Shown: positions 4,207 through 63,014, counted from the stretch's first letter. The stretch: DNA of 64,000 bases from Minisyncoccota bacterium (GCA_022841985.1 JALHQL010000001.1:5529-69528); one strand, 5' to 3'. Notes: generated from the letters alone by a model not told the origin. A program made the numbers and translations.

Positions 4207-6621
4207 TTAGACTATTTCACAAGTCCCACCGGCACAAGCAAGCTCCTTTTTCATATCCGATTCATCCTGGCGTTCATATGCGAAGAGTTTCGAGTAATCC
4301 ACTTTTGGAAAGCGAGACATGCGTTCCTCGTATTCTTTTTCTGTAATTGTCTCATACGGCGCAAGACGATAGACATGATTTGATCGCGGAAGGAATGAAA
4401 GTCCGCCGATGATGTCCCAATTTTTCTGCACCCAGCTGACAACCCCAATCCACTCATCTTCGCCCACTGAGATGGTTGCCGAAGGATTGTGTTCAGTGAA
4501 GTTCAGTTTGACCGTCTTCCAGTATTCAAGTTGATCAAGGGCGGTCAGACCGTCTTTAAACTTCGCTTCTTTTGAGTGATCAGGCGCCTTGACCGGGAAC
4601 TCCAGTACAAAGGTATTGGCTTCTTCCATTGACTGCCCCACTTCCGGATAGTACGTCACACCTTGATCGCGCATCATTTTGAAAAGTGAGTCGGTCGCAC
4701 TGATGCGCACGCGACGGATATAGTAGGGTGCGTGGCGCGGATGAATACCCGATGCACAATTGAAAGTCTGTGAGACAGTACCCGAAGGCTTGACTGCAGT
4801 TACCGCCATTGATCGCTCGACACCAAAACGTTTTGCATACGCGACATTCGTCTTGACTGCTATATCGCGAACTTTACGCATCACCTCCGGCTGGCGCGCC
4901 ACAGGAGAATCCCATTGGCCTGTTATGGAAACGCCAAGGAGACGTTCCGCCTTATTATGCTCAGTCCAATCTTTTGAAATGTAGCCGAACTTTGTGAGCG
5001 TCGATTGATAGGTGCCGAGAATCGCCGCGAGACGTGCCTTCCGCAAGAGCGAGGCTTCCGTGTCGTTTGCACGCGCAATGACCTCGGAGAGATTACAGAA
5101 CTGCTTCGACTGCAAGATAATTTCGGCGCATGGATTGGTGCCGATAGATCCATGTACGACGCCATCTTCCCCGATAAAGCCGATTTTCTTGAAATACTCC
5201 GTTCGACGCTTTGGGAGAGTCGTCGCAAGAGAACCGCGATTGAAGATGCCTCGCTCGCCGCTTCCGCTTTTCATGAGCGCTACCCATTCGTCCATGAGCT
5301 CGGCATTGGTCGGCTGTATCTCATACACGGCGGAGTTATTGGAAACAGCGCGGTGTGGATCGGTCATATAGAATTGACCTTTCTTTGCATCACGCATCTC
5401 CACATCATCGAGGTCGGAGAGCGAGATCATCGCAGTACGACGCACTCCGCCAGCAACCACGCATTCGCCTATCTTACAAATGACATCGTGCACGTCGATC
5501 GCGCGCATGCGACGCCCCTGGCGCTTCAACACGCGCTCGCGGGCGAATGCGAGAAGACTCTGGAGCGGTTCAGGACCGCTTGCCTTCCCACCCATGGTCT
5601 TAAGGCGTGCTCCGGCCGGTCGTATCTGAGAATAATCAAATGTAATGTCTTTACCTGCATACCAGGTCGTAAGCCCGAGCGTGAGAGCATCGCACCAGCC
5701 CTCCTTTGAGTCCGCAATGACGTGCGTTGGTATCTTCTGCCCCATTTGTTTTTTGATTTGCGGAAGCTGCTCGACGTTTTGACTCTCTACCGCAAAGCCG
5801 ACACCGCATCCCTGCATTGAGAGATACATAATCTCGGCAAAGTCTTCGAGCTTCACCGGCGCAGTAAACGTACAATTATACGCACACGTATTACAGCGGC
5901 GCGCTGCCTCGCCCGAGAACTGCATGAGACGCATTGATGGCATCACTTCTTGCTTCAAGATGCCCATGCGTACTTCGGCGTATTCTTTTTCAGTCAGTTT
6001 GGTACCAAGATTCTCGCGCATGAAGCTTATGTAGCGATCTACCGTCTCAATCCATGTCTCGCGACGACCTTCAGAAGGAATCCATTTCGCGTAGGTGCGC
6101 AGGTAGACAAATTCACCGAGTGGATTTCCCTCGAAATATTTCTTGCTTTCTTCGGACAGCTTCCTCACATGTTCCGGTATCTCGATGTGCGTCGCCCGCA
6201 GTTGTGCCCGTTTGTCACGATAGAGAATGTACGCCTTAGCCGTCTTTACGTAATCGTTCAAGATGAGGTATTTTTCAATCGAATCTTGCATACCCTCGAC
6301 TGTTGGAAGGAAACTCTTATACTTCTTGGCAAATCGTCCGAGCTCGCCAGCCACCTGGTGCGCCACAAGATTTGCATCGTCCTGACTTCCTTCCTCTGCA
6401 GCGAGCATCGCCTTCCAAATAGCTGTGGCTATTTTATCGAAATCAAATGCAACAAGTCGCCCATCGCGTTTTTCTATTTGTGGAATCATTTCGCGATATC
6501 GCATCGTCTCCTTTGAGAACTCTTGTTCCGAGACTTCGGAAGGGAATCTAGATTCCGTCACTTTCGCAACAGAAGCAGCAAGACTTTTCGAATGGATGGA
6601 TGCTTTCGCGATTTTGGACAT
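4207..6621 (-). CDS. nrdJ: Adenosylcobalamin-dependent (class II) ribonucleotide reductase with N-terminal ATP-cone; the true start may be internal (MRYRE.../MIPQIEKRDG...)
   Basis: 804 aa. ATP-cone-like segment IPQIEKRDGRLVAFDFDKIATAIWKAM. RNR active-site motif TNPCAEI. C-terminal redox-active Cys pair CAGGTCEIV. The large size is typical of NrdJ. Confidence 0.75.
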   Translation of the reverse strand: MSKIAKASIHSKSLAASVAKVTESRFPSEVSEQEFSKETMRYREMIPQIEKRDGRLVAFDFDKIATAIWKAMLAAEEGSQDDANLVAHQVAGELGRFAKKYKSFLPTVEGMQDSIEKYLILNDYVKTAKAYILYRDKRAQLRATHIEIPEHVRKLSEESKKYFEGNPLGEFVYLRTYAKWIPSEGRRETWIETVDRYISFMRENLGTKLTEKEYAEVRMGILKQEVMPSMRLMQFSGEAARRCNTCAYNCTFTAPVKLEDFAEIMYLSMQGCGVGFAVESQNVEQLPQIKKQMGQKIPTHVIADSKEGWCDALTLGLTTWYAGKDITFDYSQIRPAGARLKTMGGKASGPEPLQSLLAFARERVLKRQGRRMRAIDVHDVICKIGECVVAGGVRRTAMISLSDLDDVEMRDAKKGQFYMTDPHRAVSNNSAVYEIQPTNAELMDEWVALMKSGSGERGIFNRGSLATTLPKRRTEYFKKIGFIGEDGVVHGSIGTNPCAEIILQSKQFCNLSEVIARANDTEASLLRKARLAAILGTYQSTLTKFGYISKDWTEHNKAERLLGVSITGQWDSPVARQPEVMRKVRDIAVKTNVAYAKRFGVERSMAVTAVKPSGTVSQTFNCASGIHPRHAPYYIRRVRISATDSLFKMMRDQGVTYYPEVGQSMEEANTFVLEFPVKAPDHSKEAKFKDGLTALDQLEYWKTVKLNFTEHNPSATISVGEDEWIGVVSWVQKNWDIIGGLSFLPRSNHVYRLAPYETITEKEYEERMSRFPKVDYSKLFAYERQDESDMKKELACAGGTCEIV

Positions 6622-6712
6622 ACGTGGACGATCAATAATTTATAAATATACTGCCGCGTGCTTCTTATCAACTAGTTTACTCCTGCTGCAAAAAAATACC
6701 CTGTGGACAGCG

Positions 6713-7189
6713 TTACTCTGAAACGATTGGAAAATTTTTCAACATAAGTTTTGTACTGGTCGTGATGTTGTGTGCACGCGCAAAACCAGCGACAGTTTCA
6801 AGGACATACCGTGCTTGGGCGTTCGGATAAAAGACATTTGGATAGCTTGAGGTCGCTACATTTTCGGCGATTGAAATAACCTGTCCTTTATCATCCAGCC
6901 AGAAAATATCTATAGGGACCAGCATATCCTTCATCCAGAAGCCATACATACCATCCTTTTGGAACACAAAAAACATTCCATAGTCTCCAGGGATCCTTGC
7001 TCGGCCGCTGAGCCCTCTCGCTTGCGCCTCGCTCGTACTTGCGACTTCAATTCTCAAGGACACGCCGCCAAATTCCCCTACGATAGATGGCTCCGCTGTT
7101 GGCGAATTTGTCCTATAGAAAAATAGTGCCGTAATTACCATCGCCACTATCAGAAATCCTACATAAAAATATCGAGACATACGCAACAA
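6713..7189 (-). CDS. DUF192 (COG1430) family protein with N-terminal membrane anchor
   Basis: 158 aa, N-terminal TM helix. Conserved DUF192 core: AQARGLSGR...GMFFVF...FWMKDMLVPIDIFWLDDKGQVI. Confidence 0.6.
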   Translation of the reverse strand: MLRMSRYFYVGFLIVAMVITALFFYRTNSPTAEPSIVGEFGGVSLRIEVASTSEAQARGLSGRARIPGDYGMFFVFQKDGMYGFWMKDMLVPIDIFWLDDKGQVISIAENVATSSYPNVFYPNAQARYVLETVAGFARAHNITTSTKLMLKNFPIVSE

Positions 7190-7194
7190 ATCAG

Positions 7195-7665
7195 CTAGAC
7201 TTTCAAAAGCATATCTACCATTTCTAGCTCCTTGTAAATGCCTGAAATGAGATCGAGCTCTTTAGCCTCTTCCAAACTTGCCCATTTGTATTCAACGGCG
7301 TCTTCGTCAAGCTTCACTTCCCCGGAAATATATGGCGCGTAATAGCTCAAGACCAGCACAGGAATTCCATCGGGGTGAAGGAAGGTAAGGTCAAGCAGAT
7401 AATTCACTTTCCCTATTTCAACACTTACTTCTTCTTGCACTTCTCGCCGAAGAGCTTTCTCGACAACTCCATACCAACCAGCATTACCATGAGTCTGCGG
7501 TGTATCGATATAATCGTTCGTACTTAACCCCCCGCCGGGCACTGTCCATTTACCCGGATGTACTTTTTTATGCTGGCTTCTTTTCGTCACCAAGTACTTC
7601 CCTTCGTCATTATAGATGATGCAGGTGGTCGCTATACGATGAAGTTCCTTATCTCGTATCTCCAT
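7195..7665 (-). CDS. NUDIX hydrolase
   Basis: 156 aa. Nudix box GGGLSTNDYIDTPQTHGNAGWYGVVEKALRREVQEEVSV (Gx5Ex7REUxEExGU pattern). Confidence 0.7.
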   Translation of the reverse strand: MEIRDKELHRIATTCIIYNDEGKYLVTKRSQHKKVHPGKWTVPGGGLSTNDYIDTPQTHGNAGWYGVVEKALRREVQEEVSVEIGKVNYLLDLTFLHPDGIPVLVLSYYAPYISGEVKLDEDAVEYKWASLEEAKELDLISGIYKELEMVDMLLKV

Positions 7666-7695
7666 GCATAAATGCTACCACGGAGCTCGGGGTAC

Positions 7696-9078
7696 CTAGA
7701 TAGTCTGATCGTGCGGATCGAAAATGGACGGGGACACTTCTTTTCCTTGCAGTAATTCTGAAATTCTTTTGCCACCAAATACCGATGGTAGAATACCGAC
7801 GCCGTTGCAGCCGAGGTTATACAAAAGCACCGGATTACATGGCTCGAAACCGACGCGACGAACGCCGTTTGGCGTATAGCCCATGAGTCCATGCCAACAA
7901 AACGCGTACTTGGTTTCCGGACCAGGGTGTTTACTGTAATTTGAACGCAGGAAATCGTCGATTATATCCCTCATATCCTCGGTGTACGCATGTGTGCGAG
8001 AATAATCCGCCCCATTCGGAAGCACTTTTTCCGGTCCACCCGCACAGACTAGACTATGGAGATTCTTCCCTTCGTGTTCGTGCGGACGACGAGTGAGGTA
8101 GAAATAGCTTTCGCCGGTCGGATCGCCATTGCGCTCATTCGTCTTGGGGAAATAACTCACGGCTGTGGGAGGATTGTCGAGCGGCTCGACGTAACCGGAC
8201 ATGTAACCGATGCGTCCAGCAATCGAGTGATGAAATGCCGTATCAATTTCTGGCCCCACTTCATTACTGATCGAAAAATGTTCGAATCCATTGGTGCACA
8301 GCACAATATTCCCCGCCACAACCGTATGCGCAAGGACCCCGAGCGACCCGTCGGCCCCCTTGAGCCGTACTGTTTTTACCGGACTGCCCTCATATAAAGA
8401 AAAACGGTCCTGGTATTTCGTCACTAAGTATCCGATGAGCTCTTCGGTAAAGAGCGCGCTATTCATGCATCCTTTCTGAAAAGCAAGGGAAGCGACGTAG
8501 CCCGTATTATTCGTCTCAAGCAGATTAAGCATGTCTTTGTGCGCGACTGTTCCATAGAGATGCGCATATGCTTTTGGAATATTCTTGCGCTCCTCCCACT
8601 CTTCGGCGACAATCATTGCCTCCGTCTGTAATCCTCCTTCCTCTCGGTAATGATTATCTTTCAGATGCCGAAGGACCTGATCGAAGCTCGAAAGCCCGGT
8701 ATATCCGGTAAATCGATAGAGCGGCGTCCGTAGATCCGCTTCTTCCATGATTTGGTCAATCAGCGTCCAAGCAGACTCGATCGAACGTTGACCATCAATG
8801 GCAAGTTCGAGACCGAATTCTTCCACGAGCTCAGAAAGCGGCCGCTCGAAGTAACTTGTAATCTGTCCTGCATTGTGCCCGGTCGCTCCATGGGCAATTT
8901 TATCGGCCTCAAGCAGAATAACGGTCTTGTTCGTATCGCGCAGAGTGAAAAAAGCGGTAACAATGCCGGCAATGCCACCACCGACGATGGCCACATCCGC
9001 GGTCGCATTGGCATTAAGCGGAACAACCGATCTACTGCGCTTGAGCTGATGTATCCAGGGTGAATTATTCGGTATCAT
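7696..9078 (-). CDS. FAD-dependent oxidoreductase (DAO / glycine-oxidase-like family)
   Basis: 460 aa. N-terminal dinucleotide-binding motif DVAIVGGGIAGIVTAF plus EADKIAHGATGHNAG, typical of the DAO superfamily. Confidence 0.65.
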   Translation of the reverse strand: MIPNNSPWIHQLKRSRSVVPLNANATADVAIVGGGIAGIVTAFFTLRDTNKTVILLEADKIAHGATGHNAGQITSYFERPLSELVEEFGLELAIDGQRSIESAWTLIDQIMEEADLRTPLYRFTGYTGLSSFDQVLRHLKDNHYREEGGLQTEAMIVAEEWEERKNIPKAYAHLYGTVAHKDMLNLLETNNTGYVASLAFQKGCMNSALFTEELIGYLVTKYQDRFSLYEGSPVKTVRLKGADGSLGVLAHTVVAGNIVLCTNGFEHFSISNEVGPEIDTAFHHSIAGRIGYMSGYVEPLDNPPTAVSYFPKTNERNGDPTGESYFYLTRRPHEHEGKNLHSLVCAGGPEKVLPNGADYSRTHAYTEDMRDIIDDFLRSNYSKHPGPETKYAFCWHGLMGYTPNGVRRVGFEPCNPVLLYNLGCNGVGILPSVFGGKRISELLQGKEVSPSIFDPHDQTI

Positions 9079-9095
9079 ATGGCATTACTAAAAGT

Positions 9096-10691
9096 TTACT
9101 CTACTTTGAAACTGAACATCATCCCCGACTCAAGATGCTCGGCGATATGGCAGTGTGCCATCCAGATGCCCGGGTTTGAAGTGTCGAGAATGATGTCTAC
9201 CGTTTCTCCAGCTTTCACCAAAACTGTGTCTTTCCACGCAAGGTTTGTTTGCGGTACTCCATCGCGAGCCACAACAAGGAACCGCTGACCGTGGAAATGC
9301 ATCGGATGTTGCATCGGGTGCATAGAATTCGGATCATTAAAAATCCTGATCTTGACTGGCTCTCCGCGCTTGAACGTCCAGTCGATGTCCATGTTTTCTT
9401 TTCCGGTCGCCTGATCTCTTACTTTCCATTTGACTGCATCGGCATCGGACATTTGGTTCATCATTTCGTTTTCATCTTCCCACTCAATACCGCCTTCCGA
9501 ACTCATCATAGAGCCGCCCATCCGGGTGCCGTCCGGCATCATATGGCCTCCCATCATACTCATCATGTTGCCGCCCATGTCGATGGAGAGTTTGATTTGT
9601 TTGTTTGGTGCTTTGTCGAAATACTGCCGGAATGGAACGATACTTGCCACTGTTTCTCCATGAGTGCGGAGCCGATTGAACTCTGACGTATAAGAGACCT
9701 CAACAGAATCTGTGTTTACACCGATCGTACCAAGTGTATAGGTTTTATTCGGTGTCTTATTTTGAATCGCAAACGTGCCACTTGTATCAAACATAACTTC
9801 AACGACAGCGCGCTCAGAAGGGCCGAGCGTTACCGCATTCACCCATTGATCCTTTTCATACGCACCGCCATCTGCTCCGACTAGCTTCATCTTTGCTCTA
9901 GCGATGGAAAAGTTAAACGGTCGAGTATTTGCTGAATTGGTGACATAGAAGCGAATAACCTCTCCTTTTTTTACAGAAAGGGAATACTCTGTCTCGCCAT
10001 TTATGAGCATAACGTTCCCAAACCTGCCCATGAGAGTATGACTGGCTTCCTGTTTGTTCAAAGTAATCCTTCCGTCTTCGATTAACATATCGTCTAAGAA
10101 TAGAGCGGCCTCGCGATTCACGGGCGACCAGTAATCAGCACTTTTCGGAACCACAAGATAGTTTCCATAGAGTCCGAGTTCCTGCTGATAATCCTCCCGA
10201 ACGTGCGGATGATACCAATACATACCGGCATCCGGAAACTTGAGTTTGTAAGAAAATACTTCGCCCGGCTTCATTGCTTCCTGCGTACTCTGCGATCCGT
10301 CAAACGCATTGTCCATTCTGATGCCGTGCGAGTGGAGAAGTGTATTCATGTCAATGCCGTTTTTGAAATTGATTGTAACTTCCGCTCCTTGGGCGATTTT
10401 AATAAGCGGTCCCGGAATTGAACCATTATAGGCAAGCATCCGGTATTCCGTGCCGTTAATATTCTTTTTTACATAGCTTGCGGTGAGATCATAGGTATCG
10501 CCATCCTTAAGCTCCACTGTTTGCGTTACCGAAGCGGGAGAGAGACCTGGGGTATCTGTGCTTACATACTCGCTTCGCACTATAGAGAACGAATTATCCT
10601 GTAAAAAGAACGCCGTCCCAATTATAATAACAACCGACACGATTCCACCGAATAGTTTATTTTTCATATAGTTTAACGAATTTGTTTCCAT
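9096..10691 (-). CDS. Multicopper oxidase (CueO/laccase-like) with Met-rich insert and N-terminal TM/signal anchor
   Basis: 531 aa. Copper-centre motifs HPMHFHG and HCHIAEHLESGMM (HCHxxxHxxxxM type 1/3 Cu ligands). Met-rich segment GGNMMSMMGGHMMPDGTRMGGSMMS as in copper-resistance MCOs. N-terminal hydrophobic helix. Confidence 0.8.
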   Translation of the reverse strand: METNSLNYMKNKLFGGIVSVVIIIGTAFFLQDNSFSIVRSEYVSTDTPGLSPASVTQTVELKDGDTYDLTASYVKKNINGTEYRMLAYNGSIPGPLIKIAQGAEVTINFKNGIDMNTLLHSHGIRMDNAFDGSQSTQEAMKPGEVFSYKLKFPDAGMYWYHPHVREDYQQELGLYGNYLVVPKSADYWSPVNREAALFLDDMLIEDGRITLNKQEASHTLMGRFGNVMLINGETEYSLSVKKGEVIRFYVTNSANTRPFNFSIARAKMKLVGADGGAYEKDQWVNAVTLGPSERAVVEVMFDTSGTFAIQNKTPNKTYTLGTIGVNTDSVEVSYTSEFNRLRTHGETVASIVPFRQYFDKAPNKQIKLSIDMGGNMMSMMGGHMMPDGTRMGGSMMSSEGGIEWEDENEMMNQMSDADAVKWKVRDQATGKENMDIDWTFKRGEPVKIRIFNDPNSMHPMQHPMHFHGQRFLVVARDGVPQTNLAWKDTVLVKAGETVDIILDTSNPGIWMAHCHIAEHLESGMMFSFKVE

Positions 10692-11581
10692 GAATCTCCC
10701 CCGTCACTGCTCTTGTAGAGCTTATTCTCATGTGTAAGAGCATAGACTATGTTTGGATTACTTCGATTAAAAACAATGTGGAGTACTGCCCCCACTCCAA
10801 AATCACTACTTACCTTTCCCCACGTCTTACCTGCATCGATGCTTTTCCCAAGACCCCCTAACTTTTCACTAAACGTAAGAAGAATTTTTGCGTCTTGAGG
10901 ATTACTAACGATGACTGATACGGCTCCATCTTCCAATTCCGGCGAAAGAGATGTCCATGTTGCACCTTTATCCTTACTTACCATCACTCCCTGGCCTTGC
11001 GTGGTCGCGGCATAAACCACGTTTTCATCTTGTGTGTCGGCCGCAAGATACACCGGTAGTAAATTACGATTCACTATCTCCCACGTTTTACCCTGATTGA
11101 TGCTTCGCTGAAGATTGCCCTGATACCAGCCATACATAAGATTGGGATTCACCGGACTGACAGACATTGCATGGAAATCAACCGGGCCGTTCAAGCCACT
11201 GGAAACCTTCTGCCATGTAACTCCGCCATCTTCAGACTTTTGAAATCCGATATTACCTCCGATACTTGGATGGCCACTTGAAAAAACAATGTTTGCTTCC
11301 GTGGGATGAGTAGAGAACCCCATGTAATCGTCTTTACTTTTACCAACCCGATATAGATCTTTTTCATTCAAAAGTACCAACAGACCATGATGTGTTGCGA
11401 TATAGAGTTTATTGGGATCTTCTACCGCAACTGCCAAACCATGCCCGTGCGTAATAACTTCTTCAGGGTACAAGTTATTTAATGAAGAATCTTTTGTTGT
11501 ATCACCGCCACGATAAAACATCGTGATTCCACCGACCATAAGTACGACTGCTATAATTCCAATGATTATTTTAATTTTCAT
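10673..11581 (-). CDS. BNR/Asp-box repeat beta-propeller protein (Ycf48/sialidase-like fold), membrane-anchored
   Basis: 302 aa, N-terminal TM helix. Repeated Asp-box motifs S-x-D-x-G-x-T-W: SEDGGVTWQKV, NQGKTWEIV, KDKGATWTSL, DAGKTWGKV, SDGGDSWKQI. Confidence 0.55.
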   Translation of the reverse strand: MKIKIIIGIIAVVLMVGGITMFYRGGDTTKDSSLNNLYPEEVITHGHGLAVAVEDPNKLYIATHHGLLVLLNEKDLYRVGKSKDDYMGFSTHPTEANIVFSSGHPSIGGNIGFQKSEDGGVTWQKVSSGLNGPVDFHAMSVSPVNPNLMYGWYQGNLQRSINQGKTWEIVNRNLLPVYLAADTQDENVVYAATTQGQGVMVSKDKGATWTSLSPELEDGAVSVIVSNPQDAKILLTFSEKLGGLGKSIDAGKTWGKVSSDFGVGAVLHIVFNRSNPNIVYALTHENKLYKSSDGGDSWKQIR

Positions 11582-11597
11582 CTATTTATTTTATTGA

Positions 11598-13703
11598 TTA
11601 CAATTCGCGCTTTCGTAAAAGAATTGCGTTACCAGCGACGATGATCGTACTCACCGACATAAACACGGCCGCTACTGCTGGATCAAGAATGATTCCTTTG
11701 AACGCCAGCGCACCAGCGGCAAGCGGCAGGGCTACCACGTTGTAGCCAGTCGCCCAAAACAGGTTCTGGATCATTTTGGTGTAGGTCATCTGTGATAACC
11801 GTACGATCTTCACAATATCCCGAGGGTCATTCCGCATAAGAATAATACCGGCTGACTCAATAGCGACATTTGTACCAGCACCTATTGCGATTCCGAGATC
11901 GGCCTGTGTTAGAGCTGGAGCATCGTTGATACCATCGCCGACCATTGCGACCTTCAGGCCACGATCCTGCAATGCTTTCACCTTTTCTGATTTCTGATGA
12001 GGAAGCACCCGAGCAAAATATTCATCAATGCCGAGCTCGGAGGCGACCCATTTTGCCACATCTTCGGAGTCGCCAGTAATCATTGCGGACTGTATACCCA
12101 TTTCTTTAAGCGACTTGATCGCTTCTCGTGACTCTTCCCGAATGATATCGGCGAGTGCCATCGCTCCGAGGAGTTTTTTATCTTTTATTGTAAAGACAAC
12201 GGTCTGTCCCTTCTTACCGGCATCCTGAACATGATTGGAAATTTCATTTGGAATGCTAAGTCCAAGACTCTCAAGAAGAGTCGGCCCACCAACCATGACT
12301 TCCTGCTCGCCAATCATTGCCTTTACACCACTGCCTTTGATTGCTTCAAACTTCTTAGGATCTTTGAGCGAAAGTCCCTGTTCTTTGGCTTTAGCCACCA
12401 CAGCTCGGGCAATTGGATGCTCCGACAGAGCATCGAGCGAAGCGGCTAATGCTATAACCTCGTCTTTGGTATACCCGCTGGTGCTCCATACTTCTACCAC
12501 CCCAAATTCTCCCTTTGTGAGTGTTCCTGTCTTATCAAACAGCACGGTATCCACTGTCCGAGCGGCTTCAAGGGCAAGACGCTGTTTTACGAGAAAGCCA
12601 TTCTGTGCCGCTTTGGTTGTGGAAATTGCTGCGACCAACGGAACGGCGAGACCGAGCGCATGCGGACAAGCAATCACAAGTACAGCCACGAGCCGAGCTA
12701 CCGCAAAACCGACATCAGCTCCAGCCAAAAGCCAGGCAATGAGTGTAATAAGGCCTCCACCGACTGCAACTACCGTGAGATACAGTGCTGCCCTATCGGA
12801 GAGAATCTGCAGTTTTGACTTGGAAGCCTGTGCTTCGGCGACTAAACGCATAACACCGGCAAGAAAGGTCTTCTCGCCGATTTGTGTGACTCTGATCTTT
12901 AGTGCTCCATCGCCATTAATTGTACCGGCAATAACAGCGTCGCCTTGCTTTTTAGACACTGGGTTAGATTCTCCGGTAATCATAGACTCGTTTACATCGG
13001 AATCGCCCTCAATGACGGAACCGTCGGTCGGAATCTTTGTCCCTGGCTTGACCAATACGATGTCATTTTCCCGAAGCTCGGAAAGAGAAATAGTCGTCGT
13101 TACTCCATTGTGGATTACTTCTGCGGTATCGGGAAGTAGTTTTGACAGTTCCTTAAGTGCTCCTTGCGCTCCGGAAACCGCACGCATTTCGAGCCAATGG
13201 CCGAGAAGCATGATCGTAATAAGTGTCGTGAGTTCCCAAAACAGAGCTTCGACTCCAGCAAAGACCGCATACACACTCCAGAGATAAGCGGCCGAAATAG
13301 CAATCGCGATAAGGGTCATCATCCCTGGTAGTCGTCCCTTGATCTCGCGCCACGATCCAATTAAGAACACCCAGCCTCCGTAGAAAAAGACGACTGATCC
13401 TATGACCAAGGAGAGATAGTCTGACCCGGGGAAAGAGGGAGGAGACCATTTAAAAATAGTTTCTACGACATCCGCGTAGAACACGACCGGAATAGTTAAC
13501 AGAAGGCTTATCCAAAACTTTCTAAAAAATATCTGCGTCGAGTGGCCTGCATGCGTATCGTGCCCCTCGTGTGCCGTTGTCGATTTCTTGTTTCTCGTGG
13601 GTACCAATTGCATACCGCACTCCGAACACATTCCCGGCGTATCCCGCACCACTTCCGGATGCATCGGACAGGTATACCTTGTTTCAGTTTGTTGTTGTGT
13701 CAT
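11598..13703 (-). CDS. copB: Heavy-metal (copper) translocating P1B-type ATPase, CPH subtype (CopB-like), with N-terminal Cys/His metal-binding domain
   Basis: 701 aa. TM6 motif CPH (VIACPHALGLAVP). DKTGTLT phosphorylation site. GDGINDAP hinge. N-terminal YTCPMHPEV...PGMCSECGM metal-binding module and His-rich stretch HEGHDTHAGHS. Confidence 0.85.
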   Translation of the reverse strand: MTQQQTETRYTCPMHPEVVRDTPGMCSECGMQLVPTRNKKSTTAHEGHDTHAGHSTQIFFRKFWISLLLTIPVVFYADVVETIFKWSPPSFPGSDYLSLVIGSVVFFYGGWVFLIGSWREIKGRLPGMMTLIAIAISAAYLWSVYAVFAGVEALFWELTTLITIMLLGHWLEMRAVSGAQGALKELSKLLPDTAEVIHNGVTTTISLSELRENDIVLVKPGTKIPTDGSVIEGDSDVNESMITGESNPVSKKQGDAVIAGTINGDGALKIRVTQIGEKTFLAGVMRLVAEAQASKSKLQILSDRAALYLTVVAVGGGLITLIAWLLAGADVGFAVARLVAVLVIACPHALGLAVPLVAAISTTKAAQNGFLVKQRLALEAARTVDTVLFDKTGTLTKGEFGVVEVWSTSGYTKDEVIALAASLDALSEHPIARAVVAKAKEQGLSLKDPKKFEAIKGSGVKAMIGEQEVMVGGPTLLESLGLSIPNEISNHVQDAGKKGQTVVFTIKDKKLLGAMALADIIREESREAIKSLKEMGIQSAMITGDSEDVAKWVASELGIDEYFARVLPHQKSEKVKALQDRGLKVAMVGDGINDAPALTQADLGIAIGAGTNVAIESAGIILMRNDPRDIVKIVRLSQMTYTKMIQNLFWATGYNVVALPLAAGALAFKGIILDPAVAAVFMSVSTIIVAGNAILLRKREL

Positions 13704-13707
13704 ATGA

Positions 13708-13980
13708 TTATTTCTTTTTCTGCGCCAGTTTATAGACTTTTAGAATTTCCGCGACCGCTTTTTTGCGCTTCCCTGATTTCATCTGTTCGACGACATGGGT
13801 CGTGAGATGGTTCTCGAGCACCAAGTCTTCCACTCCCGACAATGCCTCCTTAATTGCGCTTGATTGAATAATAATATCCACGCAGTACCGTTCGGTATCG
13901 ACCATTTTTATAAGTCCGTCGACTTGTCCTCTGATGAGACTGAGGCGCCGGAGTGATTTTTTCTTTATATCGGCTTTCAT
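13708..13980 (-). CDS. csoR: CsoR/RcnR-family (DUF156) metal-sensing transcriptional repressor. The ORF-track start at 14082 is probably spurious; the start at ATG 13980 is preferred.
   Basis: The 91-aa form MKADIKKKSLRRLSLIRGQVDGLIKMVDTERYCVDIIIQSSAIKEALSGVEDLVLENHLTTHVV... matches the CsoR/RcnR family (LxRIEGQVRGIxxMxEEDRYCxDIL). The operator palindrome lies immediately upstream of this start. The stop is 5 nt upstream of the copB start. Confidence 0.75.
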   Translation of the reverse strand: MKADIKKKSLRRLSLIRGQVDGLIKMVDTERYCVDIIIQSSAIKEALSGVEDLVLENHLTTHVVEQMKSGKRKKAVAEILKVYKLAQKKK

Positions 13981-13992
13981 GTTATCCCCATA

Positions 13993-14009
13993 ATACCCCT
14001 CTGGGGTAT
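13993..14009. promoter_or_regulatory. CsoR-type operator: perfect inverted repeat ATACCCC-TCT-GGGGTAT overlapping the csoR promoter/5' end
   Basis: ATACCCCTCTGGGGTAT lies 13 nt upstream of the csoR ATG. It resembles known CsoR operators (GC-rich TACCC-N-GGGTA pseudo-palindromes in B. subtilis copZA and M. tuberculosis cso). Confidence 0.55.
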
Positions 14010-14085
14010 TTGTGTACAGTCTCGCCTTTATGTACCCTATAGATGGAGGTTGGAGATTACTAAAAACACTAAACGACTTCACTAT

Positions 14086-14215
14086 GATGAACTATGGCTA
14101 TGGGAGCATGATGGGTAGCGCGGGCAGTTTTGGTTTTCTTGTCGGAATCATTATTCTCGTCGACCTTGTCCTCGTGGGCATCTGGCTCTGGCAACAGATT
14201 TCTAAAAATAAATAA
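14086..14215 (+). CDS. Possible small single-TM protein (43 aa from the internal Met; 67 aa from ATG 14012), divergent from csoR
   Basis: MMNYGYGSMMGSAGSFGFLVGIIILVDLVLVGIWLWQQISKNK: a Gly/Met-rich N-terminus plus one hydrophobic helix. No convincing SD, so real coding status is uncertain. Confidence 0.2.
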
Positions 14216-14239
14216 CGTTCCGTATTTCGCGGGATGCGT

Positions 14240-16918
14240 TCAAGACAACCTTCTTCGATAGAAGAACTTGCGGATTTCTTCGACCAAGATAATTGATCCG
14301 GCGACGGGAATAATAATCAACCATTCCGAAAGTGAGAGCGGTACCGTGTGCAAAATGTTTTGCATAAACGGATTATAGACTGCAAATAAATGAAGAAGAA
14401 TGACCACCATGGTCACACCAACGAGATACGTATTGGAGAATGGATTCATCTGAAACAAAGACTTGCTCTCGGAACGGCAATTCCACGCATTGAACCACTG
14501 GAAGGCGGCCATGGTCGTAAGAGCGATAGTCCAAGCTTTGGCAAGATCAGTTTCAAAATATTGACTGAAAAGATAGAGTGTTCCAAGTCCCATGACCGGA
14601 GCCAAAAGCAGCATCCGTCGCGCCATAAAGCCGTCGACAATCCATTTCTTCTGTTTATCGAATGTACCTTGCAGCAGACCTTGCTCCTTTGGTTCCATAG
14701 CAAGCGCAGCTGTCAGAAAGCCGCCAGTGACAAAATTAAGCCAAATAATCTGCGATGGCAAAAGTGGTACTGGCCAACGCGCTACGAGCGCGCCCATAAT
14801 ATTAATAACTTCTCCTATGCTGGTAGAGAAAAGAAACGTCAGAACTTTTTTTACCGTCTTATAAATGCTTCTGCCCTCTTCAGCCGCCGAGACGATGCTG
14901 GCAAAATTATCGTCCAGAAGCACGATATCAGACGCCTCCTTTGCCACTTCTGTTCCTATGTTCCCCATAGCAACGCCAAGATCGGCAGCGACAAGAGAAG
15001 GAGCATCATTAACGCCATCTCCGGTCATCGCTATGATCTCACCGCGTTTCCGATAGGCCTGAATGATGCGGAGTTTGTGATCTGGCGTCACGCGCGCAAA
15101 GACAGTCGTGTGGGCGAGCTTCACAGAAAGTTCCTCGTCGTACATCTTGTCTATGTCTTCCCCGGTAAGAATTCCGTCGCCTTCGCGCCAGATATCCGCC
15201 TCTTTTGCTATTGCCTGCGCCGTGAGCCGATGGTCGCCCGTAATCATCACCGCGCGCATGCCTGCCGAGCGCACTCTCTGCATCGCTTCTTTTACTTCGC
15301 CGCGGAGGGCGTCTTGCATGCCGAAAAAACCGACGAACGCGAGCGGCGGTAATGCCCCCTCGATTACTGATTCCTCAGTATTCGGATTAATGGCATACGC
15401 AACGACCCGAAAACCGTTTCGCGCGAATGTGTGAAATACCGTCGTAAGCTCTTTTCTTTTCTCTTCAGTAAGTGTGTCAACTCCTTCTTTGTGCCAGAGT
15501 TTCTGGCAAAGTCTGAGAACTTCTTCAGGGGCACCGACGATGGTAAGAAAATTCTTCCCCTCTACCATACGAATAACGGCATGATATTTTCTCCGATAGT
15601 CGAACAGGGTTTCAAAAAGTTTTGGTGTTTCCTTCTCTAGAACGTCATGACGGAATCCAATCTTTTCAGAGAACACCAGCATCGCCGCTTCAGTGGGATC
15701 TCCCGCGACCTTCCACATGCCAGTTTCTTCAAAAAAAGAGAGTCGTGCATTAGCACCAAACGCCGCGATCCTTCCGCTTAATAGCAGTTCGGAATGGTTT
15801 AAAGGATCGATAACCACGCCGTCAAGAACCGCTTCGCCCTTCGGATCGTAACCATTTCCGGTAATCTGAAAATGTTTTCCATCTGCATAGATGCCCCGAA
15901 CCAGCATTTCATTCTTTGTCAGAGTGCCAGTCTTGTCTACCGCGATGACTTTGGTCTGTCCCAACGCTTCTACCGCTTGCATCCGCTTTACCAATACATT
16001 GTGCTTTGACATTCTCCATACGCCAGTTGCGAGCACAAGAGTCATGACGATCGGAAGTCCCTCAGGGATAATGGAAACTGAGAGCGCCACAGCTGTGGTA
16101 AACATTTCTTTAAGAGATTTTCCGGAAGAAACACCGAGCGCAATCAATGCAACATTGATGAGAGCCACTGCGATAATGATGAGGCGCGAAAGATACCGAA
16201 TATTCATTTTTAAAGGAATCTCGGTGTCAATCGTCGAAATCTCCTGTGCTATCTTCCCGATCTCTGTCGCAAAGCCAGTCGCTATGACGACCGCAATGCC
16301 ATTTCCACTTAACACATTGGTACCTTTGAATAGTATATTTTTCTGTTCCGTAATCGGCAGAGTATCAACTGGCACGACTGCTTCGGTTTTAGTGACAGGT
16401 ACCGATTCCCCGGTAAGACTAGCTTCATCTATTTTAAGAGTATTGGCGGAGATAATCCGCGCATCAGCCGGCACTTTTTCTCCTTCTTGAAGGAGAATAA
16501 TATCCCCCGTCACTATCTCGGTATCAGGAATGATGCGCTCCTTTCCATCTCGCACTACCGTGGCCGAAGTTTCAGAAAATTTCTTTAAGGCGAGAAGCGC
16601 ATTTTGTGCTTTGCCTTCCTGAAAAGTCCCGACAACGGCATTAAAAAATAGGACAACGAAAATGATTGCCGCATCAACTGCTTCTCCCATCCAGAAAACA
16701 ATTGCCGAAGCAGCAAGAAGAATATAGATAAGAGGACTTTGGAATTGCCGTAAAAAAATAAGGAAGAGCCCGTCTACCTTTCCTTCGGGAAGTTTGTTGA
16801 CCCCGTATTTTTGAAAACGCTCGTTCGCCTCCTCTTGTGTCAATCCGCGCTCGTTCGAATGCAGCGTCTCAAGAACATCGAGGATTGTTTTCGTATGCCA
16901 GGGAAATGGTTCCATCAC
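14240..16918 (-). CDS. P2-type cation-transporting P-type ATPase (Ca2+/Mg2+-ATPase-like)
   Basis: 892 aa. N-terminal cation-ATPase-N segment (LTQEEANERFQKYGVNKL). PEGLP motif in M4. DKTGTLT. GDGVNDAPSL. Ten predicted TM helices. Confidence 0.8.
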   Translation of the reverse strand: MMEPFPWHTKTILDVLETLHSNERGLTQEEANERFQKYGVNKLPEGKVDGLFLIFLRQFQSPLIYILLAASAIVFWMGEAVDAAIIFVVLFFNAVVGTFQEGKAQNALLALKKFSETSATVVRDGKERIIPDTEIVTGDIILLQEGEKVPADARIISANTLKIDEASLTGESVPVTKTEAVVPVDTLPITEQKNILFKGTNVLSGNGIAVVIATGFATEIGKIAQEISTIDTEIPLKMNIRYLSRLIIIAVALINVALIALGVSSGKSLKEMFTTAVALSVSIIPEGLPIVMTLVLATGVWRMSKHNVLVKRMQAVEALGQTKVIAVDKTGTLTKNEMLVRGIYADGKHFQITGNGYDPKGEAVLDGVVIDPLNHSELLLSGRIAAFGANARLSFFEETGMWKVAGDPTEAAMLVFSEKIGFRHDVLEKETPKLFETLFDYRRKYHAVIRMVEGKNFLTIVGAPEEVLRLCQKLWHKEGVDTLTEEKRKELTTVFHTFARNGFRVVAYAINPNTEESVIEGALPPLAFVGFFGMQDALRGEVKEAMQRVRSAGMRAVMITGDHRLTAQAIAKEADIWREGDGILTGEDIDKMYDEELSVKLAHTTVFARVTPDHKLRIIQAYRKRGEIIAMTGDGVNDAPSLVAADLGVAMGNIGTEVAKEASDIVLLDDNFASIVSAAEEGRSIYKTVKKVLTFLFSTSIGEVINIMGALVARWPVPLLPSQIIWLNFVTGGFLTAALAMEPKEQGLLQGTFDKQKKWIVDGFMARRMLLLAPVMGLGTLYLFSQYFETDLAKAWTIALTTMAAFQWFNAWNCRSESKSLFQMNPFSNTYLVGVTMVVILLHLFAVYNPFMQNILHTVPLSLSEWLIIIPVAGSIILVEEIRKFFYRRRLS

Positions 16919-17004
16919 AAGTACCAGTATATCCTTTGCGCAAGCCTTTTCCGATTAGATCCGCTTTGCTGAGCTTTGTGACAAATCACCTCTGCTATGG
17001 AGTC

Positions 17005-17385
17005 CTATCCCTCTACTTCCACGCTAAAACCCCCTTTGGCCATGCGCTTCATATCAAATGGCATAGAAAAATCCTTTGCATCTTTGTATTTTTCGCTCAT
17101 CTCATCCATCACTTTTTTATTGACTTCGTCGCGATGTTGCTTGGATTCATACACAATAAAAGAAAACCACACGGTCTCGTCCGCATTTGTTTTTGTAAGC
17201 TCAGTAAACGCAAGCGATTTCATGCCATCCATTTCTTCAGACTCAAGATCGTCACCCTTGCATTCGTAATACTCAAGAGCACCGTGTTTCATCCACGCAT
17301 CGCGGCCTTCGATGGCCATTTTTGTATATTCCTGCACTTTGTCTTTCGGAACTACGAATACAAACCCGTCTATATATTTTGCCAT
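17005..17385 (-). CDS. DUF1428 family protein
   Basis: 126 aa. MAKYIDGFVFVVPKDKVQEYTKMA...GALEYYEC...ETVWFSFIVYESKQHRDEVNKKVM matches the DUF1428 pattern. Confidence 0.6.
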   Translation of the reverse strand: MAKYIDGFVFVVPKDKVQEYTKMAIEGRDAWMKHGALEYYECKGDDLESEEMDGMKSLAFTELTKTNADETVWFSFIVYESKQHRDEVNKKVMDEMSEKYKDAKDFSMPFDMKRMAKGGFSVEVEG

Positions 17386-17462
17386 AGTATTTTTTATTAA
17401 TAAATTAAGTATACTTTATCAAATTTCCTAGAAAACGGGAGCTCGGTTCAAAATTGCCAATC

Positions 17463-17529
17463 TGGCGATGAAGGGGAGATTCGAACTTTCGAGACCCTTT
17501 CGAGCCTACCACCTTTCTCCCACGCAAAG
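17463..17529 (-). pseudogene. Degenerate tRNA 3' half (variable-arm/T-arm/acceptor-3'/CCA) directly abutting tRNA-Ser; no matching 5' acceptor strand
   Basis: Minus-sense ...GGTGGTAGGCTCGAAAGGGTCTCGAAAGTTCGAATCTCCCCTTCATCGCCA. It is similar to the 3' portion of the neighbouring tRNA-Ser (CTCGAGAGTTCGAATCTCTCC vs CTCGAAAGTTCGAATCTCCCC), but the T-stem no longer pairs and no 5' acceptor partner (G[AG]TG[AG][AG]G) exists. Confidence 0.4.
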
Positions 17530-17616
17530 CGGAGGCGGAGAGATTCGAACTCTCGAGGCGGTTTCCCACCTGCCGCCTTTCCAAGGCGGTGCACTCGACC
17601 ACTATGCGACGCCTCC
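17530..17616 (-). tRNA. tRNA-Ser (anticodon GGA), class II with long variable arm; CCA not encoded
   Basis: Cloverleaf: acceptor GGAGGCG/CGCCTCC (7 bp); D-stem GCA/TGC; anticodon stem CCGCC/GGCGG with loop TTGGAAA; variable arm GGTGG-GAAA-CCGCC; T-arm GAGAG-TTCGAAT-CTCTC; discriminator G. Flanked by an 11-bp inverted repeat CCCACGCAAAG / CTTTGCGTGGG. Confidence 0.8.
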
Positions 17617-17744
17617 GCTTTGCGTGGGATTGCGACTTACAACAAACATCTCGCGAAACTCGCTGTTTGGCAAGTCGGAAACAATGCAATTCTTTAGACC
17701 GCTCTGCCATCTCTCCATCTATTCTGTTATAACAGAAAAATTTT

Positions 17745-18641
17745 CTATTTTCCAAGCAATGCTTCGATTCTACTTTGAATTGGCGGATGCGTAGAAAACA
17801 TTCGCCCAATCCATCCACTTATCCTGTCTGATTTCGCTCCAAATGGATCTCCAATGAAAAGGTGTGCAGTCGCTGTATTGGCGCTTTTCATTGGTGATGC
17901 ATAACTGCCAATCTTTTCGAGCGCAGAAGCGAGACCTTCGGGATATCGTGTGAGCAAAGCACCTGAAGCATCTGCAAGATATTCGCGTCGTCGCGAGACA
18001 GCTAGCTGGATAAGTTTTGCCGCAACGGGCGCGAGCACAATACCGACAACCCCGAGCACCATAAAAATGGGACTGTTCCCTCCACGATTATTGTCTCGCC
18101 CTCCGCCAAATATCGACATGCGCAAGAAGATGTCCGCAACGATAGCGACAAAACCTGCGAGCACCACTGCAACTGTCATCAGAAGCATATCGCGATTCTT
18201 GATATGCGAAAGTTCGTGACCAATGACGCCCTCAAGTTCGGGTCGCGAGAGCAGGGTGAGCAATCCAGTCGTTACACACACAACCGCATGGTTCTCGTCG
18301 CGACCAGTCGCAAATGCATTTGGAGCAGGATCGTCAATCACGTAGAGCTTCGGCTTTGGGAGTCCTGCCGCAATAGCAAGATTCTCGGTAACGGTATAGA
18401 GATCAAAAAACTCCTCTCGCGAAGCTTCCCGTGCATGACTCATTGAGAGAACGAGCTTATCCGAAGCCCAGTAGGCATAAAAATTCGTTCCAAGAGCTAT
18501 TGCAACTGCGATATAGAGTATTGATGGATTTCCGTAATACCCAGAGACAACATATCCAATGGCAATAACAACAACCAAAAAGCCGAGCACGAGTGCCCAC
18601 GTCCGACGGATATTGCTAGATCGCTGTGCGTACAAGTTCAT
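17745..18641 (-). CDS. htpX: Zinc metalloprotease HtpX (M48 family)
   Basis: 298 aa. HELSH zinc-binding motif (VIGHELSHIKNRD). N-terminal TM helices. Conserved C-terminal THPPIxxRI. Confidence 0.8.
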   Translation of the reverse strand: MNLYAQRSSNIRRTWALVLGFLVVVIAIGYVVSGYYGNPSILYIAVAIALGTNFYAYWASDKLVLSMSHAREASREEFFDLYTVTENLAIAAGLPKPKLYVIDDPAPNAFATGRDENHAVVCVTTGLLTLLSRPELEGVIGHELSHIKNRDMLLMTVAVVLAGFVAIVADIFLRMSIFGGGRDNNRGGNSPIFMVLGVVGIVLAPVAAKLIQLAVSRRREYLADASGALLTRYPEGLASALEKIGSYASPMKSANTATAHLFIGDPFGAKSDRISGWIGRMFSTHPPIQSRIEALLGK

Positions 18642-24428: not shown

Positions 24429-24447
24429 CGTTTTATATATCTAGTAG

Positions 24448-24521
24448 TGGGCGTGCCTGGACTCGAACCAGGAACCGCCGAGGTATAAGCTCGGTGCTCT
24501 AACCAATTGAGCTACACGCCC
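24448..24521 (-). tRNA. tRNA-Ile (anticodon UAU); CCA not encoded
   Basis: Clean cloverleaf: GGGCGTG-TA-GCTC-AATTGGTTA-GAGC-A-CCGAG-CTTATAC-CTCGG-CGGTT-CCTGG-TTCGAGT-CCAGG-CACGCCC-A. Anticodon loop C-U-UAU-A-C. Confidence 0.75.
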
Positions 24522-27123: not shown

Positions 27124-27527
27124 GGGGGTGATCGGCTTTGACGATTTGTTCCTTGAAAGACGTGCGACGCAGTGCACTCCCGCCCAACACTTTAATCTGG
27201 CGGGAAACATACTTGCAAAGAATACTCTAGCAAGCGTGAAGTCCCCGTACTTCGGTATGAAGGACTTCTCGTTCGCCTACGCGAAAGCCTAACGGCTCTT
27301 CGCCTTCGCGACGTTCATCCTCTCGGGCTCCTATAGCCGAAGGTATGGGCGGAATCATCTATAGGATCGATGTTCGGAATCCCGTCCGATACATCTAGAC
27401 AAGGGATCGGGCAGGAATGGTTTCGTCTGCGTTCTTCGCATCCTGCCTCAAAGATAACGCTGACTACGCGTCGTAGAAACGCTTTCATAAACAGATTCGG
27501 ACGGGGGTTCAATTCCCCCCGCCTCCA
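27124..27527 (+). ncRNA. ssrA: tmRNA (SsrA), about 404 nt; 3' CCA not fully encoded
   Basis: 5' GGGGGTGATCGGCTTTGACG... (tmRNA 5' consensus GGGGCTGATTCTGGATTCGACGGG). 3' GGACGGGGGTTCAATTCCCCCCGCCTCCA (consensus GGACGGGGGTTCAA(C/T)TCCCCC.GCTCCACCA). Acceptor GGGGGTG/CGCCTCC with a G3-U70 Ala-identity pair. An in-frame tag ORF ends ...FSFAYAKA-TAA at ~27290-27317. Confidence 0.8.
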
Positions 27528-27540
27528 CAAAACAAACATT

Positions 27541-62729: not shown

Positions 62730-63014
62730 ATGAATCCCGTTAGAGATAATGAAATGTACTATGTGTACGTCATTAGAAGTCTCTCGAGCGACTATTGGTA
62801 TACTGGCGTTACGAACGATTTACGGAAACGCTTCAGCCAGCATCAAACAGCGTCAACCGGATGGACGAAACGCCATCGGCCATACGAACTGCTATATTAC
62901 GAAGCATGTCGCAACATGAACGATGCAACGACTCGAGAAAAATATCTCAAGACCGGCACGGGAAAGCGATATTTAAAAAACAGACTGAAGCGGTTCCTAT
63001 CTCTAACGGGATGA
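62730..63014 (+). CDS. GIY-YIG nuclease-domain protein (UPF0213/YhbQ-like). Start at ATG 62730 or 62754.
   Basis: YYVYVIRS...YTGVTNDLRKRFSQH is the GIY-YIG core. About 90 aa single-domain. Confidence 0.7.
   Translation: MNPVRDNEMYYVYVIRSLSSDYWYTGVTNDLRKRFSQHQTASTGWTKRHRPYELLYYEACRNMNDATTREKYLKTGTGKRYLKNRLKRFLSLTG

Follow-up and report, generated by a model that had tools for sequence, protein, structure and literature searches.

The analysed stretch of DNA, referred to here as the window, is 64 kb long and carries on its minus strand, just past the htpX gene, a complete tRNA-Ser(GGA) gene enclosed between the two parts of another tRNA-Ser(GGA) gene. The features of this locus are as follows.

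17745..18641, minus strand: htpX, encoding an M48 protease (Pfam PF01435), the conserved upstream neighbour; homologues 80-95% identical in Patescibacteria
17682..17716, minus strand: 5' half of the outer tRNA-Ser(GGA), positions 1-34, pseudogene, GGAGAGATGGCAGAGCGGTCTAAAGAATTGCATTG
17518..17681, minus strand: inserted cassette of 164 bp; the same cassette and junctions in seven other Patescibacteria loci
17633..17677, minus strand: imperfect hairpin of 45 nt in the cassette, with an 8-bp stem H1, a 6-bp stem H2 and a variable tip in the MFE fold
17617..17629, minus strand: leader TCCCACGCAAAGC, 13 nt, pairing with the trailer as part of a 20-nt perfect inverted repeat (fold)
17530..17616, minus strand: inner, intact tRNA-Ser(GGA), 87 nt (G1 to G73), CCA not encoded (ARAGORN; Rfam RF00005)
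17518..17530, minus strand: trailer GCTTTGCGTGGGA, pairing with the leader, its first base being the discriminator G73
17463..17517, minus strand: 3' half of the outer tRNA-Ser(GGA), position 35 to CCA, pseudogene (direct repeat; BLAST)

Along the minus strand, in the 5' to 3' direction, the outer 5' half comes first and is followed by the hairpin, the leader, the complete tRNA, the trailer and the outer 3' half; the 5' half (17716-17682), the cassette (17681-17518) and the 3' half (17517-17463) directly adjoin one another. The left junction of the cassette reads ...TTG(34)|TTTCC and the right one GTGGGA|GAAAG(35...). The htpX stop codon is followed by the TTCTGTTATAACAG motif, which is conserved ahead of the tRNA gene in relatives, and a conserved TATAAC motif precedes the outer 5' half by 9 nt.

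The outer 5' half begins 28 nt past the htpX stop, the place occupied by an intact tRNA gene in relatives. It opens with GGAGAGATGGCAGAGCGGTCTAA... and showed 96% identity to positions 1-23 of the tRNA of the related locus L001 (BLAST). The outer 3' half reads GAAAGGTGG T AGGCTCGAAAGGGTCT C GAAAG TTCGAAT CTCCC CTTCATC G CCA and spans anticodon position 35, the 3' strand of the anticodon stem, the long variable arm, the T arm, the 3' strand of the acceptor stem, G73 and CCA. It constitutes a 45-nt direct repeat of the inner tRNA with 78% identity, and 93% identity was detected to positions 36-77 of the tRNA-Ser of another related locus, L004 (BLAST, E = 4e-11). A decayed tRNA 3' part ending in CCA had been recognised here in the original prediction, and it proved to be longer than described (17517-17463). 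It had been regarded as a duplicate with no 5' partner; it turned out to be the original gene's own 3' half, with the 5' half located 164 bp upstream (17716-17682), outside the segment that the prediction covered. Because this matching 5' half is placed exactly where relatives have an intact tRNA-Ser(GGA), the reading of the locus as a nested gene, in which a 164-bp cassette would have interrupted an ancestral tRNA-Ser(GGA) between anticodon positions 34 and 35, is well supported.

Inner tRNA, flanking helix and outer halves

ARAGORN called one tRNA-Ser(GGA) at the locus (17529-17616, minus strand), and the inner gene scored 56 bits with the Rfam tRNA model (RF00005), for which the cut-off is 29. 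The tRNA-Ser(GGA) of the original prediction is thus real, and its strand is the minus one. A cloverleaf, a long variable arm, the anticodon GGA and an above-threshold score, which together define a bacterial type II tRNA, were all found for the inner gene, and it is presumably the working gene.

The leader (17629-17617) and the trailer (17530-17518) are paired over 13 bp. An extension of the acceptor stem by 11 bp had been predicted; the complementarity was confirmed, and two additional pairs, C(-1) with the discriminator G73 and T(-13) with an A, make the helix longer than stated there. Together with the 7-bp acceptor stem, the 13 bp form a 20-nt inverted repeat that is 100% complementary (repeat search; fold z = -7.4). 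By chance, 13 bp at fixed positions would all match with a probability of about 4^-13, and paired flanks are absent from all four other tRNAs of the window.

Covariation was examined in a sample of only 9 sequences representing about five lineages. For the 20-bp helix, 97.8% of cells pair across these 9 loci, which form a small sample partly chosen by the search pattern. One leader-trailer pair was seen as G:C, G.U and A:U, so that both sides had changed, and four further helix pairs showed a one-sided change to G.U. In the hairpin, stem H2 of L113 and L123 reads CAAAAT/ATTTTG instead of CAAACA/TGTTTG, which amounts to two compensatory double changes, while the changes in H1 are mostly to G.U wobble pairs and the tip is variable. 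This is modest evidence that the leader-trailer and hairpin folds matter, probably in RNA. The role that the helix would play in RNA is not obvious, since a fully paired leader with a -1:73 pair is expected to hinder RNase P. No Rfam family covering the scaffold was found in the window region 17380-17760 at E <= 10 or in L003, L094 and L155 at the gathering score, and a promoter/terminator consensus scan gave nothing beyond shuffle expectation on the relevant strand. A search of the 64-kb piece for RNase III with the E. coli sequence as the query gave no match, a negative that carries no weight for a piece of this size.

The outer gene of the window carries G7 changed to A, two A.C mismatches in the T stem and the acceptor 3' strand CTTCATC, which no longer pairs with the 5' half. 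When the cassette was removed in silico, ARAGORN called a tRNA-Ser(GGA) in L003, L155 and L094, whereas the joined halves of the window were not called as a tRNA; the outer gene of the window is therefore the more eroded one. The outer anticodon stem is mispaired in every copy, and insertions of 20-36 nt are present in the D, T or variable regions of the outer halves of other nested loci. Judged by these changes, the outer halves are decaying pseudogene remnants, and the decay in the window appears to consist mostly of G:C-to-A:T transitions. A shift of the acceptor stem by two bases (GATGGAG/CTTCATC), which makes the outer gene look intact, was also considered and rejected, as it wrecks the D arm and is unseen in relatives.

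Empty and filled sites in related loci

Related loci from genomes and metagenomes, designated by L numbers, were compared with the window. The HtpX homologues with 80-95% identity belong to MAGs of Kaiserbacteria, Paceibacteria and Parcubacteria (Patescibacteria). The order of htpX followed by tRNA-Ser(GGA) is kept in about 60 related loci, and in simple relatives the tRNA starts 26-47 nt past htpX, behind the TTCTGTTATAACAG motif. An intact tRNA of the GGAGAGG type occupies the matching place in L001, L086, L158, L159 and L161.

The same cassette with the same junctions was found in L003, L155, L094, L088, L113, L123 (=L136) and L126 (=L130, L154). L003 has the same nested arrangement with intact outer halves, and the nested loci beyond it were added by a metagenome scan for the leader/tRNA junction pattern on both strands. 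The search pattern fixed 11 nt of the leader or trailer and the GGAGGCG acceptor, so that the inner acceptor is uniform by construction and the helix is conserved in part for the same reason. Eight distinct loci share the junctions TTG|TTYCC and GTGGGA|GARAG. Trailer-only alleles with unrelated 5' flanks were detected in L098, L131 (=L149) and L150, and L082 has both leader and trailer with the outer 5' half absent. In viral contigs, the trailer pattern had no matches and the hairpin pattern had one chance match without a tRNA.

An empty site was identified in L086, which shares about 96% identity with L003 across 430 nt of upstream sequence. Positions 1-23 and 35 to the end of its intact tRNA are identical to the two halves of L003, and only four of the 12 bases beside the left junction differ between the two loci. 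The site thus varies among close relatives, in agreement with the original prediction. The outer halves represent several alleles: GGAGAGG in the window, L003 and L155, GGAGGCG in L094, and GGAGGGT or GGGGGGT in L088, L113 and L123. The GGAGAGG, GGAGGCG and GGAGGGT alleles each also occur intact in other loci; an intact GGGGGGT-type allele was not seen among the compared loci. Between L094 and L003, the scaffold is 96% identical, whereas both outer halves and the inner tRNA differ.

A recurrent and precise site, different alleles at that site and an empty-site allele (L086) close to a filled one (L003) were therefore found, as for a mobile insertion. It is well supported by these comparisons that the cassette family entered one position of at least three tRNA-Ser(GGA) alleles in Paceibacteria/Kaiserbacteria-like Patescibacteria, and entry at the same position of at least three different alleles argues that the cassette is, or recently was, a site-specific mobile element. 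The locus would be best explained by a tRNA-Ser(GGA) gene just downstream of htpX that was split at 34|35 by a cassette carrying a complete tRNA-Ser(GGA). To this explanation, including a working inner tRNA and site-specific mobility, we assign a probability of about 0.7. The insertion would have been made harmless by a spare copy of the broken gene and not by splicing.

The locus clearly recombines, as seen from the trailer-only alleles and from L082, and scaffold and inner tRNA types have been re-assorted, for example in L094. A single ancient insertion could thus have been inherited vertically, with its flanks later shuffled by homologous recombination or gene conversion and with no active site-specific mobility. 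Such a history is unlikely, as it needs crossovers within a few nucleotides of both junctions to set a 96% identical scaffold between the mutually complementary halves of different alleles (L003, L094 and L113), and the insert is essentially the only difference between L086 and L003. How L094 differs from L003 is explained more simply by site-specific insertion, because ordinary recombination requires these closely placed crossovers.

In related loci, other elements invade or adjoin the same tRNA gene. A LAGLIDADG ORF of 218 aa (Pfam) extends into the beginning of another tRNA-Ser(GGA) allele in L006, L009, L022, L040 and L063, and a decayed form of it is present in L007 and L048; upstream of the ORF, a stub of the resident gene (positions 1-26/27) was found in L040, L063 and L007. 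GIY-YIG ORFs of 80-84 aa (Pfam) lie between htpX and the tRNA in L060, L054, L066, L039 and L015. The resident stub of L060 and L054 stops precisely at G34, which is the cassette's own left junction. Large serine recombinases with Resolvase, Recombinase and Zn-ribbon domains abut the CCA end of the tRNA in L015 and L003, and more distant serine recombinases follow the tRNA in L012, L013, L030, L041 and L001. The only GIY-YIG ORF of the window itself encodes a small protein and is located at 62754-63014, 45 kb from the cassette.

The adjacent metal-handling block and further explanations

On the other side of the tRNA locus, the following features were identified.

7696..17385, minus strand: accessory block of 9.7 kb (Pfam; synteny in L011, L020, L005, L039, L159 and others)
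7195-7665, minus strand: backbone NUDIX gene (tblastn against related loci; Pfam)
6713-7189, minus strand: backbone DUF192 gene (tblastn against related loci; Pfam)
4207-6621, minus strand: backbone gene for class II ribonucleotide reductase (RNR) (tblastn against related loci; Pfam)

The genes of the block encode an FAD oxidoreductase, a multicopper oxidase, a BNR protein, a copper P-type ATPase, a CsoR-like repressor, a P2-type ATPase and a DUF1428 protein (Pfam). In relatives, the backbone (4207..7665) follows the tRNA directly or nearly so, in the order htpX, tRNA-Ser, (truB), NUDIX, DUF192 and RNR, and 9.7 kb separates the tRNA from NUDIX in the window. DUF192 and class II RNR follow the tRNA in 13 relatives, and the order in L159 is tRNA, truB, NUDIX and DUF192; truB is missing from the 64-kb window. 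The block, with a GC content of 47.3% in comparison with 49.8% for the rest of the window, is accessory as judged by synteny. This agrees with the character given to it in the original prediction, being absent between tRNA and NUDIX in relatives.

The block had been proposed as the inserted element behind the tRNA fragment, the fragment being a relic att repeat of an integrase-borne island that has since lost its mobility genes. The absence of the block from relatives keeping the backbone order, its slightly lower GC content and the serine recombinases placed past the CCA end of this tRNA in L015 and L003, or farther away in the five other loci named above, are consistent with that proposal. 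It is nevertheless distinctly unlikely and, as an explanation of the fragment itself, already contradicted by the locus comparison. A 5' half that belongs to the fragment lies 164 bp upstream and completes it to one tRNA, and the two are separated by the small tRNA cassette instead of the block. It lies at the tRNA-proximal end of the block and not at the far end. A second copy of the fragment, expected at the far side of the block, was absent there (6.4-7.7 kb), and neither fragment nor scaffold recurred elsewhere in the window, where only chance 9-11-mers were found (BLAST, repeat search). The same fragment architecture is present in L155, in which the nested structure has no such block downstream. 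No recombinase was detected among all block ORFs (Pfam), and no serine-recombinase homologue in the 64-kb window (tblastn with the L015 recombinase as the query). The window sequence past CCA matches the L015/L003 recombinase junction at 15 of 30 positions, which is not significant, as 508 of 2000 shuffles scored as well. Serine recombinases are not known to leave long direct repeats, which also counts against a relic att site. No recombinase or att repeat that might tie the block to the fragment was thus found in these searches. What stands of the original prediction is that the fragment marks a site-specific insertion into a tRNA gene; what does not is its identity as a duplicated att copy left by an island.

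The placement of the insertion in the anticodon loop resembles that of the group I introns of Patescibacteria tRNAs (PMC13011429), and ARAGORN recognises a tRNA-Ser in L003, L155 and L094 once their halves are joined. The outer gene could on these grounds be a functional intron-containing tRNA, with the 164-nt insert removed from RNA by self-splicing or by a BHB-type endonuclease and with two tRNAs obtained per transcript. We consider this very improbable. The insert has no group I, group II or other Rfam match even at E <= 10, and its 164 nt, 87 of them tRNA, are too few for a group I core. The junctions form no bulge-helix-bulge, and at best a 4x4 internal loop beside a 4-bp TCCC/GGGA helix, which competes with the leader-trailer stem. 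The mispaired outer anticodon stem was observed even in the joined halves that are called, the T and acceptor stems of the window are broken and its joined halves are not called, and other copies carry large disruptive insertions.

Least probable of all is an array of three tandem tRNA-Ser genes, the first having lost its 3' half and the third its 5' half: tandem tRNA duplicates are common in bacteria and the pieces are homologous to the central tRNA, but the break falls at one nucleotide (34|35) in eight loci, the pieces make exactly one tRNA matching an intact allele in a near-identical background and the spacers are a conserved structured scaffold rather than tRNA remnants, so that the comparison of L086 with L003 and the in silico removal of the cassette exclude such decay.

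Mobility, known systems and significance

For the nested cassette, a MITE or an IS-derived non-autonomous transposon was rejected as its origin: no target-site duplication is present at TTG|TTYCC and GGGA|GAAAG, no other scaffold copy exists in the 64-kb window and all copies are in one gene. The junction sequences likewise fit neither a tyrosine or serine recombinase core nor IS200/IS605-type ends.

The cassette may spread in the manner of homing, through repair of a double-strand break in the DNA of the anticodon arm, with the endonuclease presumably supplied in trans, since the cassette has no ORF. No endonuclease or transposase ORF was found in any cassette copy seen, and the mode of mobility is for this reason hypothetical. 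The RNA role of the helix is a hypothesis as well. The anticodon arm of the inner tRNA is that of many targets (CCGCC TTGGAAA GGCGG), and an enzyme reading only this arm would also cut the cassette's own tRNA. Transcription would be driven by the resident promoter ahead of the outer 5' half, for which the TATAAC motif is a candidate. In the transcript, the helix and the hairpin may prevent mispairing of the inner tRNA with the homologous outer halves, and the leader-trailer helix could offer a double-stranded entry for processing, for example by RNase III.

In intronless homing, free-standing homing endonuclease genes are linked to a cleavage-resistant allele, as for seg and mob of phage T4. 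The locus is alike in the LAGLIDADG or GIY-YIG ORF found directly upstream of the replacement tRNA-Ser(GGA) in L040, L063, L007, L060 and L054, with a resident stub left, in the recurrent insertion at one site and in the coexistence of empty and filled alleles. It is different in that the cassette of the window has no ORF and the resistance of the inner tRNA is only putative.

Integrative elements targeting tRNA genes, reportedly treated by Williams in 2002, are said to use anticodon-loop and T-loop sublocations and to carry a replacement tRNA segment. A tRNA landing site, a displaced 3' piece beginning in the anticodon loop and a tRNA sequence supplied by the element are shared with them. In contrast, the cassette measures 164 bp and brings a whole tRNA, not a 3' segment fused to the resident 5' part; its junctions share no identical core, and no integrase is present.

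The flanking helix can be compared with the leader-trailer stems of rRNA operons, which are RNase III sites, about 20 bp being the minimal substrate. In both cases a long perfect helix formed from both flanks, of 20 bp here, encloses the mature RNA, but such a stem around a single tRNA is unusual in bacteria and its cleavage at this locus is putative.

Within the phylum, group I introns sit at position 35/36 of the tRNA anticodon loop (PMC13011429), one position away from the 34/35 target of the cassette. In both, the cell keeps a working tRNA and most copies have no endonuclease gene. Unlike these introns, the cassette contains no ribozyme: it has no Rfam intron match, its length is insufficient and tRNA makes up 87 of its 164 nt. 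Its rescue also appears to come from a spare gene instead of from splicing, with the interrupted gene given up and decaying.

Insertions in the rRNA genes of CPR bacteria, many of which encode LAGLIDADG endonucleases shown to cut their own insertion site (PMC11270868), occur in the same clade, where structural-RNA genes are riddled with insertions. Those are introns or excised spacers in rRNA, however, and none has been reported with a spare gene copy. In Archaea, split, permuted and multi-intron tRNA genes are known, the halves of which are rejoined via BHB motifs (PMC3218864, PMC4033280). The separation of the halves at the anticodon loop is similar, whereas no BHB is formed here and the halves are pseudogenes. 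Full-text literature searches retrieved tRNA group I introns and rRNA insertions for the phylum, and no account of a tRNA nested in a tRNA.

A wider and more tentative reading, which we regard as possible although we would not favour it, is that the cassette belongs to a kind of selfish element not described before, a protein-less "replacement-gene cassette" of Patescibacteria. Such an element would invade the anticodon loop of the single-copy tRNA-Ser(GGA) gene, offset the damage with a complete spare tRNA held in a conserved RNA scaffold, made up of the hairpin and the 13-bp leader-trailer helix, that directs its folding and processing, and spread between lineages by homing with a trans-acting endonuclease, as part of an arms race with LAGLIDADG, GIY-YIG and serine-recombinase elements over this one tRNA gene.

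Two ways are known in which a mobile insertion inhabits an essential RNA gene, self-splicing and restoring the end of the gene. The nested cassette would represent a third, in which a whole spare is brought and the old gene is left to rot. It would account for the puzzling tRNA fragments and the breaks in contigs that metagenome assemblies of ultra-small bacteria show at this locus, and it is a warning for annotation, as such tRNA fragments need not mark integrase att sites. The finding also directs attention to endonucleases specific for tRNA genes and to an unusual helix for pre-tRNA processing, and it suggests a horizontal turnover of tRNA alleles by selfish elements in these reduced genomes.

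RNA genes of the window and the place of truB

In the relatives L159 and L082 (L-numbers denote related Patescibacteria loci, each with its own coordinates), truB is located between the tRNA and NUDIX genes, as seen when window positions 7195-17400 were compared with L159 2549-3376. No truB homologue was found anywhere in the 64-kb window, and the metal-resistance block therefore occupies the place expected for truB. Other RNA genes in the window include:

24447-24521, minus strand, tRNA-Ile with the anticodon TAT
27124-27528, plus strand, tmRNA with the predicted tag peptide AKNTLASVKSPYFGMKDFSFAYAKA

A tRNA-Ile with the TAT anticodon is uncommon among bacteria; the relatives L012 and L038 also have this tRNA. 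The predicted tmRNA tag peptide is unusually long.

Insertions in and beside tRNA-Ser(GGA) of relatives

Five loci (L023 5024-5174, L007 5756-5902, L050, L053 and L066) share a conserved element, AATGATTC...TTATGCGTGAC, which spans about 130 nt and separates the complete tRNA from a repeated copy of its 3' end, this second copy beginning at CGAATC in the T loop. The element with the repeated 3' end is a further insertion-with-duplication at the same tRNA-Ser(GGA) gene. The dead tRNA halves, i.e., the split and decaying outer pieces of the resident (ancestral) tRNA, harbour three families of mini-insertions, every time in cloverleaf loops:

36-nt double hairpin (TCACCGC...GGCGATG), L123 and L136 (D loop) and L088 (T loop)
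18-20-nt palindrome CTGCCTGCCGGCAGGCAG, L060, L054 and L113
20-nt D-arm insert, L002, L094 and L088

Large serine recombinase genes (L015 6219-7730 and L003 3183-3818, both minus strand) end at the tRNA-Ser(GGA) 3' end, with the open frame continuing antisense through that end, and the junction CCA|GATGTCCAAG is identical next to two different tRNA alleles. Just downstream of the tRNA, a structured-looking conserved sequence of about 45 nt, GCCGAAATGGGGTCGGCGCGAAGCGCCGACACTAATGCATCCCC, was present in L001 (about 5035-5080), L008, L009, L155 and L066; it gave no Rfam match at the gathering score and is missing from the window.

Several independent metagenome contigs end within the tRNA-Ser(GGA) gene, at position 35 (L081), about 45 (L083 and L085) or 28 (L160), or at its CCA end (L086), which fits assemblies broken by strain-level heterogeneity at the site.

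Endonuclease genes associated with the tRNA

In L060 (5034-5426), L054 (4960-5362), L066, L039, L015 and L008, the interval from htpX to the tRNA holds a short GIY-YIG ORF of 80-84 aa that comprises the catalytic domain alone. The resident tRNA stub of L060 and L054 stops exactly at G34, the junction of the window's cassette (the tRNA-carrying insert). The window encodes a related ORF:

62754-63014, plus strand, GIY-YIG ORF of 86 aa, 37-38% identical to the tRNA-associated ORFs of relatives

It is bordered on one side by a dprA-like gene, on the other by an endonuclease/exonuclease/phosphatase-like gene.

In seven loci (L040 4964-5774, L063 726-1538, L007 4947-5755, L006, L009, L022 and L048), a 218-aa LAGLIDADG ORF runs directly into tRNA-Ser(GGA) at its 5' end, the allele there differing from the resident type in both D arm and anticodon stem. 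In three loci, 24-27 nt of the resident tRNA persist as a stub upstream of the ORF, the L040 and L063 stubs being identical 27-mers. The ORF with its adjoining allele looks like an endonuclease gene moving together with an immune replacement tRNA.
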